A DNA stretch of 9,424 nt from Candidatus Thorarchaeota archaeon. GTDB lineage: Archaea > Asgardarchaeota > Heimdallarchaeia > Hodarchaeales > Hodarchaeaceae. The stretch covers positions 1 to 9,424 of the forward strand of contig JBHLRO010000046.1 of the NCBI GenBank assembly GCA_048882505.1. Reading direction: 5' to 3'. Below, piece after piece: positions 1-5,476 of this stretch (within the stretch, counting starts at the first letter, position 1; every line of letters starts with the position of its first letter). The notes under the pieces were generated by a model that worked only from the letters and a program-made list of their open reading frames with translations, had not been told where the DNA came from and did not search any database. Position numbers and translations under genes: made by a program.

Positions 1-1227
1 GCGCGTGATTGCCCAATTTATCGGGCCAAGATCGATACGACTGAAGAACTATCGGCTCCCCGAGCGCGATCGAATTTAATGAGGGGAATCATTAGTGGGC
101 AATTAGATCACAAACTTCTTTATACAAAGGAAGCCAGGCAAATCCTAGAGGATTGTGCGGGATGCATGATGTGCCTGGTGGACTGCCCCTCCTTCATTAA
201 CGTACCTAAGTTTAGCTTTGATGCAAAAGTAATGCATTATAAGAAATCTCGTTGGCCCTTCATTGGGAAAATCCCCAGTGGGAATTGGTTTAGTGGAAAT
301 TTCGAGTTTTTGGCCCGACGGGGGAGCACGTTCGCACCCCTTGCAAACATAGGTCTTTGGGGTCCAAACAGATACCTCATGCACTTGGTTGGACTTCACC
401 GCAAGGCAAAATTTCCGAAGTTTCGCAGAAATACATTCAGAAAGTGGTTCAAAAGTTATCGAAAGGCTAATCCAGCTCCTGCTACCCCGGTCAAGAAAGT
501 GGCCATTTTTCATGGATGTTTTGCCAATTATACTGATAACACCGATATAGCCGCCGCTCATGTACAGGTTCTTGAGAAAAACAATATAGAAGTCGTGGTT
601 CCAGAAAAACAGTATTGCTGCGGGATCCCGCTTCTGGCCAATGGATTGGGAACGATCGCAGTAGAAAAGGGCAAGAAAAATACCGAAACGTTTGCAGCTC
701 TTGTCAAACAAGGATATGATGTCGTCACACAATGTTCCTCATGCTATGCGACTTTAGAAGACGAGCTGTATGAGACCCTTGTGGGTACAGAAGACGCCAA
801 GCTTGTCAAAGAAAATCTATATTTCTTCTCGGACTATATCCTGAAACTGAAAGATGAAGGAAAACTAGACACCGAGTTCAATGGTCAATCTAAACTCCGC
901 TACGGCTATCATGAACCCTGCCATCTGATTAGCTCAGGAAAAAAAGGGATCTCTGTAAAATTGTTAAAGGATCTGCCCAATGTAGAGCTCATACCGCTCA
1001 AAACCGAGTGTTGTGGTATGTTGGGGTCGTGGGGCTTTAAAGCAAAGAATTACAAGTACAGTCAGAAGTTAGCCGACAAAACACTCTATCCTGAAGCGAA
1101 TCGGGAAGATGTGGACGTACTGGTGACCGATTGCCCCACCTGTAAATTGCAGTTATTGAATGTAGATAAAAAAATCTATCATCCCACACAAGTTCTCCGG
1201 GATGCCTACGGTATAAAGCCATCCTAG
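1..1227 (+). CDS. 5'-truncated Fe-S oxidoreductase: C-terminal [4Fe-4S] ferredoxin-like plus two CCG (GlpC/HdrD-like) domains; most likely the end of an FAD-binding/(Fe-S)-binding fusion (Dld-II/YdiJ-like D-2-hydroxy-acid dehydrogenase family)
   Basis: Frame +1 is open from base 1: ARDCPIYRAKIDTTEELSAPRARSNL precedes the track's Met at 79. The CPxYxA...ExxxPRARxNLMR motif is typical of FAD-linked oxidase/Fe-S fusions. It is followed by CAGCMMCLVDCP (CxxCxxCxxxCP) and two complete CCG sets (FHGC...YCCGIP...QCSSC; YHEPC...ECCGM...DCPTC). Stop TAG at 1225-1227. The FAD domain itself is outside the window. Confidence 0.85.
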   Translation, partial: ARDCPIYRAKIDTTEELSAPRARSNLMRGIISGQLDHKLLYTKEARQILEDCAGCMMCLVDCPSFINVPKFSFDAKVMHYKKSRWPFIGKIPSGNWFSGNFEFLARRGSTFAPLANIGLWGPNRYLMHLVGLHRKAKFPKFRRNTFRKWFKSYRKANPAPATPVKKVAIFHGCFANYTDNTDIAAAHVQVLEKNNIEVVVPEKQYCCGIPLLANGLGTIAVEKGKKNTETFAALVKQGYDVVTQCSSCYATLEDELYETLVGTEDAKLVKENLYFFSDYILKLKDEGKLDTEFNGQSKLRYGYHEPCHLISSGKKGISVKLLKDLPNVELIPLKTECCGMLGSWGFKAKNYKYSQKLADKTLYPEANREDVDVLVTDCPTCKLQLLNVDKKIYHPTQVLRDAYGIKPS

Positions 1228-1350
1228 TGGTATTCAAAACTATAATTGCATAGGTCCCCGATATACCTGGAACTCAAAATTTGGCCAATCTGGTTAAACA
1301 GTTTCGATTAAAACTTACGTCCACAAATAGGTTTTTAGGTGGGGTCAAGG

Positions 1351-1518
1351 GTGAATAATCTGATAACCTGGTTTTTGCTCTGGTATGAAAACCAAGAGTC
1401 TCTGACAACGCTGATAAAAAGCACCTTTCTTTTTTCGTTTGCTGAAACGATTTATGGGTTGGAATTTCCCGATATAATACGATCCAAATTTGATTTAGAA
1501 GACAAGATAAAAACATAA
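1351..1518 (+). CDS. Candidate small protein, 55 aa, not in the ORF track (MNNLITWFLLWYENQESLTTLIKSTFLFSFAETIYGLEFPDIIRSKFDLEDKIKT)
   Basis: GTG at 1351 with AGGTGGGG at 1337-1344 (6-nt spacing). TAA at 1516-1518 lies 2 nt before the GAGGTG RBS of the next gene. No recognisable homology. Confidence 0.3.
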   Translation: MNNLITWFLLWYENQESLTTLIKSTFLFSFAETIYGLEFPDIIRSKFDLEDKIKT

Positions 1519-1520
1519 AT

Positions 1521-1526
1521 GAGGTG
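1521..1526 (+). promoter_or_regulatory. Archaeal-type Shine-Dalgarno site (GAGGTG) for the DUF3303-like gene
   Basis: GAGGTG lies 6 nt upstream of TTG at 1533 (3 nt upstream of TTG at 1530). Confidence 0.7.
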
Positions 1527-3304: not shown

Positions 3305-3327
3305 TCATAGTTAAGTATCCTGCAATC

Positions 3328-4290
3328 TTGGCACTTATGAAAGACATGATCCAGAAGTACCGATCCCCTCTAGGGATCCCCTTGACTACAAACGCCAGTT
3401 GGTGTAACGACGGTCACGAAACTCACCCTAAGGTGGTGTATTCGGGTGCACTGTATGTCACAATGAGTGTTGTATCGAAAATGTCAAGGATTTTACCTCT
3501 AATACTTCGAAATCCGACGAAAGAGGCCCGAATTAAATTTATCGGAAGGTTTGCATTTTTCTCTCGGTTGTTTTTATGGATGCCATTTTTACGGGATAGA
3601 AAATTGGCAAATGTGCCCAAGAGAGGCCTGAAAATCCTCCACTCATTAGGATATGATGATATTCGATGTCTGGATGTTGAACCATATTCTGGAGTTCTTT
3701 TATACGATCTAGGTTTCGAAGAGGAATTACTTGAATACGGGCGTTATCTTCGCGATTTTTTTCATTCTCGTAACGTTGAAGAGATAATATTACTTGATCC
3801 TCACACCTATGAACTCTTCACTACTGTTTATGCAAAAACCATTCCAGATTTTAGTTTCAAACTTCATTTGATCCTTGACCTGTTAACAGATAATTTGGAT
3901 ACGATTGGATCCGCGTGTTCTGGTCGCAGACAATCGGGAAATGGTGGAAATCTGACCTATCATGATCCGTGTATCTATGCCAAGCGTCTTCCTGAAGAGA
4001 TAATCATTCCCCCTAGAAGAATCCTAGAATCTGTTGACGGAGTTGAAATCAAGGAGGCCTTTAATCATGGCAGAACTGCAAAGTGTTGCGGAGGGCCTTT
4101 AGAATTTCTGTTTGCCGATCTGTCCAAGGAAATCTCAAAAATGCGTTATTCTGAGCTCGCGGAAACAGGAGCAAGTGAATTGATTGTTTCTTGCCCGATC
4201 TGTTACATAAACTTCAAGAAGGTACGTAATAAGAACACGAAAGTAACTGATTTGATAGACTTCTTATATGATAATATGGGGCTAACCTGA
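3328..4290 (+). CDS. (Fe-S)-binding CCG-domain protein, LutA/LldE-like subunit of the Lut-like complex
   Basis: The C-terminal CCG domain is complete (YHDPC...KCCGGP...SCPIC). The N-terminal CCG domain is degenerate (SGALY, EPYSG, DPHT at the Cys positions). The gene lies between two LUD genes with gaps of 23 and 10 nt. The start is uncertain (TTG 3328, ATG 3337, or further upstream). Confidence 0.8.
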   Translation: MALMKDMIQKYRSPLGIPLTTNASWCNDGHETHPKVVYSGALYVTMSVVSKMSRILPLILRNPTKEARIKFIGRFAFFSRLFLWMPFLRDRKLANVPKRGLKILHSLGYDDIRCLDVEPYSGVLLYDLGFEEELLEYGRYLRDFFHSRNVEEIILLDPHTYELFTTVYAKTIPDFSFKLHLILDLLTDNLDTIGSACSGRRQSGNGGNLTYHDPCIYAKRLPEEIIIPPRRILESVDGVEIKEAFNHGRTAKCCGGPLEFLFADLSKEISKMRYSELAETGASELIVSCPICYINFKKVRNKNTKVTDLIDFLYDNMGLT

Positions 4291-4300
4291 GGTTTTGAAG

Positions 4301-5476
4301 ATGGAAAAAGCGAGTAAAAAAGTCTGGAAACACTACTATAAAGATTTCACTTCTTCTTTAAAATCGGAGCCGTTTAGGAGGGGAACGGCACGCGCTACAA
4401 GCAATTATGAAAAGGGTATCAAAGAAACGTTTGATAAATTTCCCGAATCTCCCGAACTGGCCAAGGAAGTAAGAGCAATCAAAGAATACTCTATTAGTCA
4501 TCACAGGGAGCTTTTGGACGTCGCCAAACAGAAGTTTGAAGACATTGGTGCCAAAGTCTTAATCGTGAAAAATCGCCAAGAGGCTTTAGATACGTTTAAA
4601 GAGATAATAGGGTCCGGTAAGGTTATTGTAAAAGGGAAAAGTATGACCACAGAAGAAATTAGACTACGTGAATTCCTTATTGATCAAAATAATGAAGTGT
4701 GGGAGACTGATTTGGGTGAATTCATCATCCAGCTCAATAAAGAGAGACCAATGCACATTGTGAATCCCTCCTTGCATGTCCCGAGAGAAGAAATTGCGAA
4801 GTTGTTTTCCAAGCACCTCGGCAGTAAGCTGGATCCAAATGACGTAAATGGGATGGTTCTCGCCGCAAGGAAGTTCTTGAGGGAAAAGTATTATTCTGCC
4901 GATTTCGGAATAATAGGGGCGAATGTAGTGAGCGCGCAAGATGCCAAAGTTGTTACGATACATAATGAGGGAAACATTACCCTGTCATCTGTATTACCAG
5001 AAAATCTCATTATTTTTACTGGTATTGAGAAAATCGTTCCCACTCTAGAGGACGCCCTGAAAACAGCTTTCGTTACTTCCCGATATGTAAAATATAAGAT
5101 CGCAGGCTACTATAATGTTTTCGGTTCTTCCTCTGACTTCCGTTCTCGCAACGTATATCTTATTTTGATCGATAACGGGCGATCGGACATCATTTCTAAT
5201 CCTGTCTTCCGTGAAGCGGCGTATTGTGTTCGATGTGGCGCTTGCATGTATCCTTGCCCAGTTTTCAAAGTTGTTGCGGGAAAATTTGGAGGGCCGACTT
5301 ACGTGGGGGGTATTGGCGCTATCTGGACTTGGTTTATCGATGGTAAGGAGCCAGCAATTCCTCCCCTATTCAGTTGTATGGATGACGGTTCCTGTCGCAT
5401 TGCATGCCCCGTTGACATTGATATCCCAGGTTTGATCCATAAACTCAAGAGAGAAGTTATTAGGGACTCTGCCTGA
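4301..5476 (+). CDS. lutB: LutB/LldF-like lactate utilization protein (LUD domain plus ferredoxin-type 2x[4Fe-4S] domain), 391 aa
   Basis: Hallmark LutB motifs KGKSMTTEEI, EVWETDLGEFIIQL, PMHIVNPSLH, NEGN, LILIDNGRS and CVRCGACMYPCPV, plus a second motif CMDDGSCRIACPVDIDIP. GAGGT at 4289-4293 lies 7 nt before ATG 4301, which is preferred over TTG 4295. Confidence 0.9.
   Translation: MEKASKKVWKHYYKDFTSSLKSEPFRRGTARATSNYEKGIKETFDKFPESPELAKEVRAIKEYSISHHRELLDVAKQKFEDIGAKVLIVKNRQEALDTFKEIIGSGKVIVKGKSMTTEEIRLREFLIDQNNEVWETDLGEFIIQLNKERPMHIVNPSLHVPREEIAKLFSKHLGSKLDPNDVNGMVLAARKFLREKYYSADFGIIGANVVSAQDAKVVTIHNEGNITLSSVLPENLIIFTGIEKIVPTLEDALKTAFVTSRYVKYKIAGYYNVFGSSSDFRSRNVYLILIDNGRSDIISNPVFREAAYCVRCGACMYPCPVFKVVAGKFGGPTYVGGIGAIWTWFIDGKEPAIPPLFSCMDDGSCRIACPVDIDIPGLIHKLKREVIRDSA

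Follow-up and report, generated by a model that had tools for sequence, protein, structure and literature searches.

Division of LUD motifs and iron–sulfur ligands between two subunits of a Lut-like three-gene operon from a Heimdall-group Asgard archaeon

Introduction

What kind of enzyme is specified by an operon whose three products resemble the subunits of bacterial LutABC and LldEFG, and from which several of the expected iron–sulfur ligands are missing? The question is raised by positions 2141–5476 of contig JBHLRO010000046.1 (assembly GCA_048882505.1), from an archaeon deposited as Candidatus Thorarchaeota and placed by GTDB within the Heimdallarchaeia. The contig, which was analyzed over its entire 9,424 nt and is referred to here as the window (G000:C46), belongs to a genome of 4.3 Mb that is 94.5% complete. 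Three of its genes, ORF3, ORF4 and ORF5, encode a protein with a LUD domain, a protein with a CCG domain, and a short LutB-like protein, respectively; upstream are the end of a gene for a putative Dld-II-like dehydrogenase (ORF1) and a small DUF3303 gene. The LUD and cluster motifs that are found together in one protein of certain bacteria are divided in the archaeon between ORF3 and ORF5, and we consider it rather likely that the operon encodes a heteromeric Lut-type iron–sulfur oxidoreductase descended from a simpler two-gene enzyme.

The LutABC/LldEFG enzymes are widespread and are employed in lactate use by soil bacteria, gut bacteria and pathogens. Genetic evidence links them to the oxidation of L-lactate in Bacillus subtilis, Shewanella, Helicobacter pylori and Desulfovibrio, while it is obscure where the substrate binds, what accepts the hydride and what LutC contributes. 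A first-pass annotation of the window, which was made from the sequence alone, had proposed that the dehydrogenase, the DUF3303 protein and a remodelled LutABC act together as one five-gene system, and had explained the missing cysteines as a simplification of the electron chain.

Results

The three genes of the operon, together with the part of ORF3 that requires separate treatment, are as follows.

2141–3304, + strand: ORF3, 387 aa, LutC-type LUD subunit with a putative fossil ferredoxin-like domain
2945–3301, + strand: tail of ORF3, aa 269–387, all-helical, probable relic of a 2x[4Fe-4S] ferredoxin domain
3337–4290, + strand: ORF4, 317 aa, subunit of HdrB/LutA fold with the C-terminal CCG set
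4301–5476, + strand: ORF5, 391 aa, short LutB-like subunit

The starts at ATG 2141, ATG 3337 and ATG 4301 were picked from homologue alignments as the most likely ones, and leave gaps of 32 nt between ORF3 and ORF4 and 10 nt between ORF4 and ORF5; with the alternative TTG starts at 3328 (ORF4) and 4295 (ORF5), the gaps shrink to 23 and 4 nt. The order ORF3-ORF4-ORF5 is found in about ten independent loci, including L004, L005, L007, L050, L051, L053, L057 and L070, and in L068 with a shortened first gene. Locus L005 belongs to GCA_048881705.1 (G070), a genome of the same genus named Candidatus Heimdallarchaeota. The order is also present in G079 and the nearly identical L007, in three genomes of the Njord group (G286, G288, and G290 with L004), to which L051 belongs as well, and in L057 and L070. 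In the Heimdall-order genome G078, ORF3 and ORF4 stand together and ORF5 is on a separate contig. Because it recurs in about ten independent loci, the gene order is not a matter of chance.

The simplest relatives of this operon are bacterial. In Desulfosporosinus acidiphilus (Desaci_2622 and the gene upstream of it) and Neomoorella humiferrea, a CCG protein of 328–340 aa is encoded directly before a "lactate utilization protein B" of 399–405 aa, and there is no third LUD gene. The product of ORF4 aligns end to end with the bacterial CCG partner at 27% identity (E value 5e-33 for Desulfosporosinus and 2e-34 for Moorella). The partner has the sequence ELYSG at the position of EPYSG in ORF4, so that the N-terminal CCG site is degenerate in the same manner, and the residues HDxC...CCGGP...CPxC are conserved. 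The bacterial short LutB shares 42–47% identity with ORF5 and is likewise without the DUF3390 domain. In a quick maximum-likelihood tree, ORF3 and ORF5 form separate clades with support of 96 each in the Shimodaira-Hasegawa-like approximate likelihood ratio test (SH-aLRT), and ORF5 is sister to the bacterial short LutB. By these comparisons ORF4 and ORF5 are not Asgard inventions, since a single-CCG protein combined with a short LutB is what a widespread two-gene family of bacteria, found in Desulfosporosinus, other Desulfitobacteriia, and Moorella, normally has. Only ORF3, the loss of SKTGDIE, and a Cys-to-Asp change in ORF5 set the archaeal module apart. Other Asgard archaea have two-gene pairs of LutA (~250 aa) and LutB (~420–435 aa), or a LutB-LutA fusion of 663 aa.

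The distribution of the sequence motifs is the central observation. All bacterial short LutB proteins (8/8) include ETDLGE, NEGN, SKTGDIE and GxHGP in a single chain, along with two full CxxCxxCxxxCP motifs. In the ORF5 family (11/11), ETDLGE and NEGN are present, SKTGDIE and GxHGP are absent, and one of the cluster motifs is a Cys motif and the other an Asp motif. The ORF3 family (17/17) is complementary, with SRTGDIE and GxHGP, without ETDLGE or NEGN, and with no complete Cys motif. Canonical LutB (3/3) and LutC (8/8) exhibit the same split of the LUD motifs, with all cysteines kept in LutB and no tail in LutC. Thus ORF5, which also has a second LUD gene in its operon, is not an all-in-one protein of the bacterial type. 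Judged from the motifs, the two putative paralogues would each hold half of what the all-in-one homomer needs, the pattern expected if the pair had replaced it.

The ORF5 sequence includes ETDLGE (nt 4703–4720), NEGN (nt 4964–4975), and DNGR (nt 5171–5182), as well as the cluster motifs CVRCGACMYPCP (CxxCxxCxxxCP, nt 5225–5260) and CMDDGSCRIACP (CxxDxxCxxxCP, nt 5375–5410). The chain ends right after the second of these, without the DUF3390 tail of Escherichia coli YkgF. The protein scores 279.9 bits against TIGR00273 (LutB; cut-off 444.8), and is therefore outside LutB as defined by that model; against NF045670 (LdhH; cut-off 800), it scores 313.2 bits over model positions 3–385 of 706, i.e., the N-terminal half. 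The Asp of the second motif is found in 26 of the 27 closest homologues, ORF5 included, and the remaining one (P0213) is without both motifs. In the next 93 homologues listed the residue is Cys, those named being from Desulfosporosinus, Desulfitobacterium, Dehalobacter and Moorella. Asp-ligated or 3Fe-convertible clusters occur, for example, in the ferredoxin of Pyrococcus furiosus, and the second cluster motif of ORF5 recalls such clusters.

The product of ORF3 is made up of N-terminal helices, a LUD domain, which is the sole domain found by Pfam, and a helical tail of about 120 aa. Its motifs PSRTGDIE (nt 2861–2884) and GAHGP (nt 2900–2914) are invariant in eight family members and correspond to the S[RS]T[GA]DIE...GxHGP signature of LutC, in the same way that ETDLGE and NEGN are shared by LutB and ORF5. 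The profile of the ORF3 family has its best match with LutC (hhalign E value 3.9e-20), followed by ORF5 (E value 5.5e-15). In size, however, the protein is not a LutC, with 387 aa and a ferredoxin-like helical domain of 120 aa in comparison with the ~230-aa, LUD-only LutC. Of its two cysteines one, the non-conserved C278, lies in the tail. A phmmer search of ORF3 against PDB sequences gave no match, and when ORF3 was compared with ORF5, and ORF4 with ORF1, by plain BLASTP, the matches were insignificant or marginal, the kinship being revealed only by profiles and folds.

Relics of cluster ligands are retained in the tails of some relatives. The protein at L051 (P0060) reads DNGR-x14-CNFCGLCGQMYP, with the spacing of the LutB sequence DNGRS-x14-CxxCxxCxxxCP; the lead-in was read in this protein. 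The relic CxxCxxCxxx[YQV]P is found here and also in P0067 at L057 (CIECSGCIFRQP), which is encoded within the same three-gene arrangement, and in P0070 (CISCGICLTTVP). In an exhaustive HMMER search covering 1.84 billion representatives, the next-best matches beyond the ORF3 family were intact LUD + 2x[4Fe-4S] proteins, which also have SKTGDIE. Over residues 1–369, the structure model of ORF3 (predicted template modelling score, pTM, 0.83) superposes on that of B. subtilis LutB, 9a6l_B, part of an integrative model that is itself prediction-based (Z 25.2, root-mean-square deviation (rmsd) 3.9, 343 residues aligned). The match to the LutC crystal structure 2g40 covers 161 residues (Z 15.7), and only within residues 49–267. 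Together, the DNGR-x14-CxxCxxC relics and the LutB-wide structural alignment argue that the tail is a fossil ferredoxin domain. The same two grounds led us to reject the possibility that the protein is a common LutC to which a random tail is attached. In the ORF3-type protein of L068, identified by a hidden Markov model and 247 aa long, most of the tail is gone, and the family thus covers, as far as its sequences tell, partly liganded, ligand-free and truncated tails.

In ORF4, Pfam recognizes one CCG domain at residues 210–297 of the 320-aa open reading frame. The residues C212 (nt 3970–3972), C250/C251 (nt 4084–4089), and C286/C289 (nt 4192–4203) are invariant in 14 homologues. The N-terminal half contains EPYSG (nt 3679–3693) where canonical proteins have xxCCG, and EPY[SN]G together with F/L replaces the N-terminal CCG cysteines in all 13–14 ORF4 homologues. 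The two-domain fold is kept. The ORF4 model (pTM 0.87) aligns with HdrB (5odc_B; Z 20.7, rmsd 2.7, 232 residues aligned, model residues 30–317 against chain residues 1–271), with the B. subtilis LutA model (Z 22.8), and with residues 453–748 of EtfD (Z 26.6, rmsd 2.4, 256 residues aligned). In HdrB, the CCG-type site is the heterodisulfide-reducing center (structure 5ODC). ORF4 is therefore similar in fold to the CCG proteins HdrB, HdrD and EtfD, and differs from them in having one CCG cysteine set, instead of both sets and two noncubane clusters, and no membrane or ferredoxin part. From LutA it differs in the missing N-terminal CCG cysteines and in being ~80 aa longer. Several Njord-type ORF4 homologues and related metagenomic sequences (P0024, P0026, P0027 and P0028) have Cys-rich first 40 residues, e.g., C-x3-C-x4-C-x3-C, a feature absent from ORF4 of the window. 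Considering these N-termini and the CxxCxxC of L051, some Njord-group members may keep more cysteines than the Heimdall lineage.

These results bear on much of what the first-pass annotation had said of the operon. The three-gene LUD-CCG-LUD/Fe-S arrangement holds, with its tight gaps and its recurrence in about ten loci; so do the single remaining CCG set of ORF4, which is the C-terminal one, and the Cys-to-Asp change of the LutB-like subunit. The tail of the LUD-only subunit, described as free of cysteine, is nearly so, C278 being the exception. That every subunit departs from bacterial LutABC is correct with respect to Bacillus, E. coli and Shewanella, but for ORF4 and the short ORF5 the bacterial two-gene form is the normal state. 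The loss of iron–sulfur sites is better described as one side of a motif partition in which two putative paralogues complement each other than as simplification.

Sequence divergence from G070 was used to estimate the ratio of nonsynonymous to synonymous substitution rates (dN/dS). The values, rough because they come from a single same-genus genome pair, are 0.16 for all of ORF3 (0.25 for its tail), 0.075 for the degenerate N-terminal half of ORF4, 0.06 for ORF1 and 0.22 for the DUF3303 gene, and they point to purifying selection on ORF3 and on the degenerate half of ORF4 rather than to decay. Full-length ORF3-type genes are rare: a search of 400 Asgard genomes found them in 7, and within the genus itself 2 of 21 genomes have one. 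Their full-length relatives numbered three in a word-indexed search and about 15 clusters at 50% identity in the exhaustive HMMER search, the nearest (91% identity) being from Candidatus Heimdallarchaeota. All five other genomes with an ORF3-type gene that were checked also have an ORF5-type gene, and in the 94.5%-complete genome studied here ORF3 and ORF5 are the only two LUD proteins. On an Asgardarchaeia contig (L069:5623–7185), the CCG gene encodes 123 aa, the cysteine-bearing C-terminal domain alone, and no ORF3-type gene precedes it; by its sequence, this locus holds the module either in a minimal form or as a copy in decay.

A complex of ORF3 (residues 50–387), ORF4 and ORF5 (residues 50–391) was modelled with ORF3 as the scored partner. 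The model's own confidence score was 0.76 (best of three controls 0.00); in the calibration set, 58 of 80 solved complexes and 2 of 110 mismatched pairs attained this mark. At least 92% of contacts are common to the runs, and the predicted local distance difference test (pLDDT) value of the partner is at least 79. All confident contacts are between ORF3 and ORF5, and connect residues 186–257 of ORF3, which include PSRTGDIE and GAHGP, with residues 136–139 (TDLG), 222–232 (NEGN...) and 267–282 of ORF5. No confident contacts between ORF3 and ORF4 were found in this model, a result that does not argue that these two proteins stay apart. The model supports a pairing of ORF3 with ORF5 through the LUD domains, in which the motifs of the two would be face to face, and to this extent the quasi-heterodimer suggested beforehand gains support. 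The predicted interface is in agreement with the finding that the dimer interface in LutC crystals falls on the conserved groove of the protein (PMC3924224), and with the B. subtilis LutA-LutB-LutC complex, which crosslinking and co-fractionation mass spectrometry together with modelling support (PMC10090944).

Genomic neighbourhood

The remaining annotated genes of the window on which the argument draws are the following.

1–1227, + strand: C-terminal part of ORF1, 408 aa, putative Dld-II/YdiJ-like dehydrogenase
1530–1793, + strand: DUF3303 protein, 86–87 aa, TTG start at 1530 or 1533 with GAGGTG just upstream
5623–6231, − strand: class I fumarate hydratase beta, 258 bits against a cut-off of 269
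6234–7133, − strand: class I (Fe-S) fumarate hydratase alpha, 335 bits against a cut-off of 276

Positions 1–77 of the window are identical to the end of contig C4 (G000:C4:245646–245722; L002/L003). This exact 77-base overlap is the k-mer overlap of the assembly, and both contigs are adjacent in the genome. The break between them splits ORF1, whose reading frame runs on exactly over the overlap. Joined, ORF1 encodes 991 aa, of which the N-terminal 583 are at L003:12898–14646 on C4. The orthologue in G070 also has 991 aa (96.9% identity), and the neighbours on both sides of the gene are the same in the two genomes. The joined protein contains FAD_binding_4, FAD-oxidase_C, CxxCxxC-x9-CP, CAGCMMCLVDCP (CxxCxxCxxxCP), and two complete CCG domains, i.e., the domain set of Dld-II/YdiJ in one chain; the part in the window comprises the end of the first ferredoxin motif, the second one, and both CCG domains whole. 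The nearest solved structures to the FAD part are LctD (3.6e-39), the mitochondrial D-lactate dehydrogenase LDHD (2.5e-35), and glycolate oxidase. Scored as two separate halves against the YdiJ equivalog NF049975 (cut-off 1350 bits), ORF1 reached 321.5 bits with its N-terminal 608 aa and 52.6 bits with its C-terminal 408 aa. The C-terminal half is nearer to the GlpC model, at 264.7 bits, which is also under the equivalog cut-off. The structural matches of the FAD part and the YdiJ and GlpC scores together suggest a Dld-II/YdiJ-like D-2-hydroxy-acid (D-lactate-type) dehydrogenase that has a complete Fe-S chain to itself and whose specificity we leave unassigned. ORF1 resembles Dld-II of Shewanella (SO_1521) and YdiJ as a FAD-Fe-S-CCG single chain of ~1000 aa, and adjoins Lut/Lld genes as dld-II does in Shewanella; from YdiJ, which is a D-2-hydroxyglutarate dehydrogenase in E. 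coli, it differs in its score and in the GlpC-like half.

The DUF3303 protein (PF11746) scores 30.2 bits (E value 5e-7) against the Pfam gathering cut-off of 21.2. The genome has just one other match to this family, at G000:C1:165234–165497 within a 137-aa frame. Among the loci compared, the only other one with the gene in this position is that of G070, from the same genus. Neither ORF1 nor DUF3303 is found beside the module in L004, L007, L050, L051, L057, L068 or L070, and the C-terminal ORF1 query had no match at E<=1e-10 anywhere in G078, G286 and G290, all of which carry the module. The gaps from ORF1 to the DUF3303 gene and from there to ORF3 are 302 and 347 nt. ORF1 would accordingly be a separate enzyme with a transcription unit of its own, placed beside the Lut-like operon in this genus only.

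Downstream, the two-subunit fumarate hydratase (5623–7133, − strand) is convergent with the operon. It is followed by a luciferase-like oxidoreductase (7449–8351, − strand), nearest to F420-dependent subfamilies (TIGR03619, 156 bits, under the cut-off of 166.9), and by a leucine-rich-repeat protein (8705–9424, − strand) that runs past the contig end. Upstream on C4 is a Ras/Roc-family small GTPase (L003:9904–10470, − strand), and the flanks also encode Topo VI-A. Leucine-rich-repeat proteins and Ras-family GTPases are typical Asgard "eukaryotic signature" genes. A gene transcribed divergently from the Dld-II-like one (L003:10788–12695, − strand) encodes a 635-aa fusion in which an acetyl-CoA hydrolase/transferase resembling butyryl-CoA:acetate CoA-transferase is followed by a GNAT acetyltransferase domain at the C-terminus. 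This gene is conserved in G070 as well, and farther upstream there is an open reading frame of 2,338 aa (L003:741–7757, + strand). Scans of the window for tRNA and Rfam families had no match. In the intergenic region 1200–2160 no direct repeats were found, and only two weak inverted pairs. Among public sequencing runs containing this DNA, those listed were all DNA runs, from sediment and other metagenomes and perhaps including the source sample, and none was an RNA run.

Several predictions of the first-pass annotation concern these surroundings. The Dld-II-like FAD/Fe-S dehydrogenase is confirmed by the joined 991-aa protein, and the DUF3303 assignment by its Pfam score. Pfam likewise revealed no permease or regulator gene in the window, as had been stated, and an archaeal host, possibly Asgard, agrees with the 91% match of ORF3 and with the Ras-family GTPase and Topo VI genes of the flank. 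Co-conservation of the genes extends to ORF3-ORF4-ORF5 and not to the Dld-II-like gene or DUF3303, which adjoin the operon only in the genome of the same genus; the notion of a five-gene locus system did not survive this comparison.

At other module loci, ferritin/rubrerythrin genes are encoded immediately downstream on the opposite strand in G290 (L004:9245–10185, − strand) and in G078 (L052:2321–2815, − strand). These are unrelated Njord and Heimdall lineages, and the adjacency may be either a coincidence or an iron-related link. A WD40 beta-propeller gene is located just upstream on the same strand as the module in two distant loci (L007:3616–4827, + strand; L051:3890–4909, − strand).

Discussion

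Among the known systems closest to the operon are LutABC of B. subtilis, LldEFG of Shewanella oneidensis and YkgEFG of E. coli, each of which combines a CCG protein, a LUD-2x[4Fe-4S] protein and a second LUD protein; in fold, ORF3 agrees with the B. subtilis LutB model and ORF4 with that of LutA. The gene order differs, being A-B-C in these bacteria and C-A-B in the window and all related loci. ORF5 is set apart from LutB by the missing DUF3390, the Asp in the second motif and its score below the TIGR00273 cut-off. The LdhH-type LldGH of Desulfovibrio vulgaris (DVU3032/DVU3033, NF045670) is another relative, in which ORF5 corresponds to the LutB half, ORF4 and the ORF1 C-terminus match the CCG half, and a small LUD partner gene is present too; there, however, a single polypeptide of ~700 aa unites LutB with LutA and has both CCG sets, as opposed to separate genes and one CCG set here.

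We propose that the simpler form of the enzyme persists in Desulfosporosinus and Moorella as a LUD-ferredoxin protein with four motifs and eight cluster cysteines, acting with a single-set CCG protein. In the archaeal module, the role of the LUD-ferredoxin protein would have been taken over by two paralogues after complementary losses. ORF5 would have retained ETDLGE, NEGN and both clusters, with one Cys of the second exchanged for Asp, and ORF3 would have retained SRTGDIE and GAHGP, with its ferredoxin domain surviving only as a cysteine-less scaffold. The LUD-LUD pairing of ORF3 and ORF5 would create a single composite substrate site between both sets of motifs, from which electrons would pass along one wire, i.e., from the two ORF5 clusters to the single CCG cluster of ORF4 and on to a further acceptor. 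A more ambitious reading, which we put forward tentatively and think somewhat more apt to be wrong than right, is that the module represents a living intermediate. A homodimer with two symmetric composite sites would have been duplicated to yield an obligate pseudo-symmetric heterodimer with one site and one wire, canonical LutC would be the end point of this process, and the Lut substrate site would be at the LutB-LutC interface. If so, the LutC-like end point, with the ferredoxin domain deleted, is already seen in the 247-aa protein of L068.

Several observations weigh against this proposal. In the quick tree, ORF3 is on a long branch of uncertain position. Approximately unbiased (AU) tests reject neither a clade of ORF3 with LutC (p 0.244) nor a clade of ORF3 with ORF5 (p 0.225). 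That ORF3 is simply a LutB paralogue is not established either, given its LutC-type LUD motifs and the survival of both clades in these tests; going by sequence, it may be a tail-keeping sister of canonical LutC or the product of an independent parallel split. As for the complex, its score expresses the confidence of the model in itself and was obtained from shallow alignments (6–14 rows) and for three chains, unlike the calibration set. To our knowledge, no hydride-accepting cofactor is established for Lut enzymes, and for this reason the composite active site is offered as a hypothesis only. Our literature search found no biochemical study of the archaeal module, in accordance with what the first-pass annotation had supposed of its architecture, or of the bacterial two-gene pair. 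The LctP lactate permease family (PF02652) has no match in the genome, although at 94.5% completeness its absence is unproven. Finally, the module has different neighbours at different loci, and they do not point consistently to any substrate. Genes of the tricarboxylic acid (TCA) cycle type occur without a fixed pattern, namely fumarase in the window and citrate synthase by L007/L053, L068, L067 and the Moorella pair, and a gene of the Ldh/Mdh family is located directly upstream of the module in L068; on account of these genes, malate is a further candidate substrate.

With respect to function, the homology to the genetically characterized LutABC/LldEFG makes L-lactate or a similar small 2-hydroxy acid the substrate that we would name, with a little better than even confidence. 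Lactate use has precedent in the Asgard archaea, since "lactate utilization proteins A and B" and isotope-probing evidence for lactate use have been described for Lokiarchaea (PMC8027215). A paper on Archaeoglobus fulgidus (PMC3949148) recounts that LldEFG was reported to stimulate Dld-II in Shewanella and to act as an electron relay in Desulfovibrio alaskensis, and on this basis the operon could instead be a Lut/Hdr-like electron-transfer or thiol-disulfide module. The CCG cluster of ORF4 would then be catalytic, the LUD subunits would serve as the entry or exit of electrons, and the substrate would not be a 2-hydroxy acid. The HdrB fold of ORF4 with exactly one complete CCG cysteine set, and the lack of a detected lactate permease in the genome, are compatible with this function. 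We regard it as unlikely in view of the genetic tie of LutABC/LldEFG to L-lactate oxidation in four bacterial groups, and of the fact that a thiol-relay, lipoyl-carrier or membrane partner gene was beside the module in none of the ten loci examined. Moreover, the LUD motifs are the most conserved residues of ORF3 and ORF5, as would be expected of a catalytic site more than of a mere conduit for electrons.

The reported stimulation of Dld-II (PMC3949148) could also be taken to mean that ORF1, the DUF3303 protein and the three-gene operon constitute one system oxidizing both D- and L-lactate. The genes are adjacent on the same strand in the window genome and in G070/L005, the arrangement mirrors dld-II-lldEFG of Shewanella, and the FAD domain of ORF1 is nearest to lactate-type dehydrogenases. 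Nonetheless we hold such a system to be improbable. Gaps of ~300–350 nt separate ORF1, DUF3303 and ORF3, as against 32 and 10 nt within the operon; the two upstream genes are missing beside the module in seven loci, and ORF1 has no match in three module-bearing genomes; and with a complete Fe-S/CCG chain of its own, ORF1 needs no extra module. A conserved five-gene Dld-II/DUF3303/Lut system was consequently dropped from consideration, co-conservation not extending beyond the genus. The adjacency of the Dld-II-like and DUF3303 genes to the operon resembles that in Shewanella and may, by analogy, mean that a common pool of substrate is used; the idea that both stereoisomers of lactate are oxidized is itself an analogy with dld-II-lldEFG. 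Least probable by far is that the operon, as its lost cysteines could suggest, is decaying toward non-function, even though three canonical Fe-S binding regions have been stripped of their ligands and the CCG gene of L069 is cut to a 123-aa domain without ORF3. The reading frames are uninterrupted, homologues that share only 20–64% identity have the same substitutions fixed, dN/dS is 0.08–0.25 even in the degenerate parts, the operon order is conserved across distant Asgard lineages, and the structure models of ORF3 and ORF4 are confident.

The families to which these proteins belong are already known; the operon represents no new kind of system or pathway, and the link to Dld-II is local. What is new is the archaeal split of motifs and Fe-S sites between putative paralogues, and the link of ORF4 and ORF5 to bacterial two-gene pairs. 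The module may serve as a natural example of the conversion of a homomer to an obligate heteromer by complementary degeneration. It is also a rare module, probably for hydroxy-acid oxidation, in Heimdall- and Njord-group Asgard archaea, whose carbon metabolism is relevant to models of eukaryogenesis. Taken together, the all-in-one bacterial protein, the split archaeal pair, and canonical LutB and LutC, along with the predicted interface, provide an idea, testable by mutagenesis, of where catalysis takes place and why LutC is needed. If the module is indeed a living intermediate, the substrate site of all LutABC/LldEFG enzymes would be at the LutB-LutC interface.

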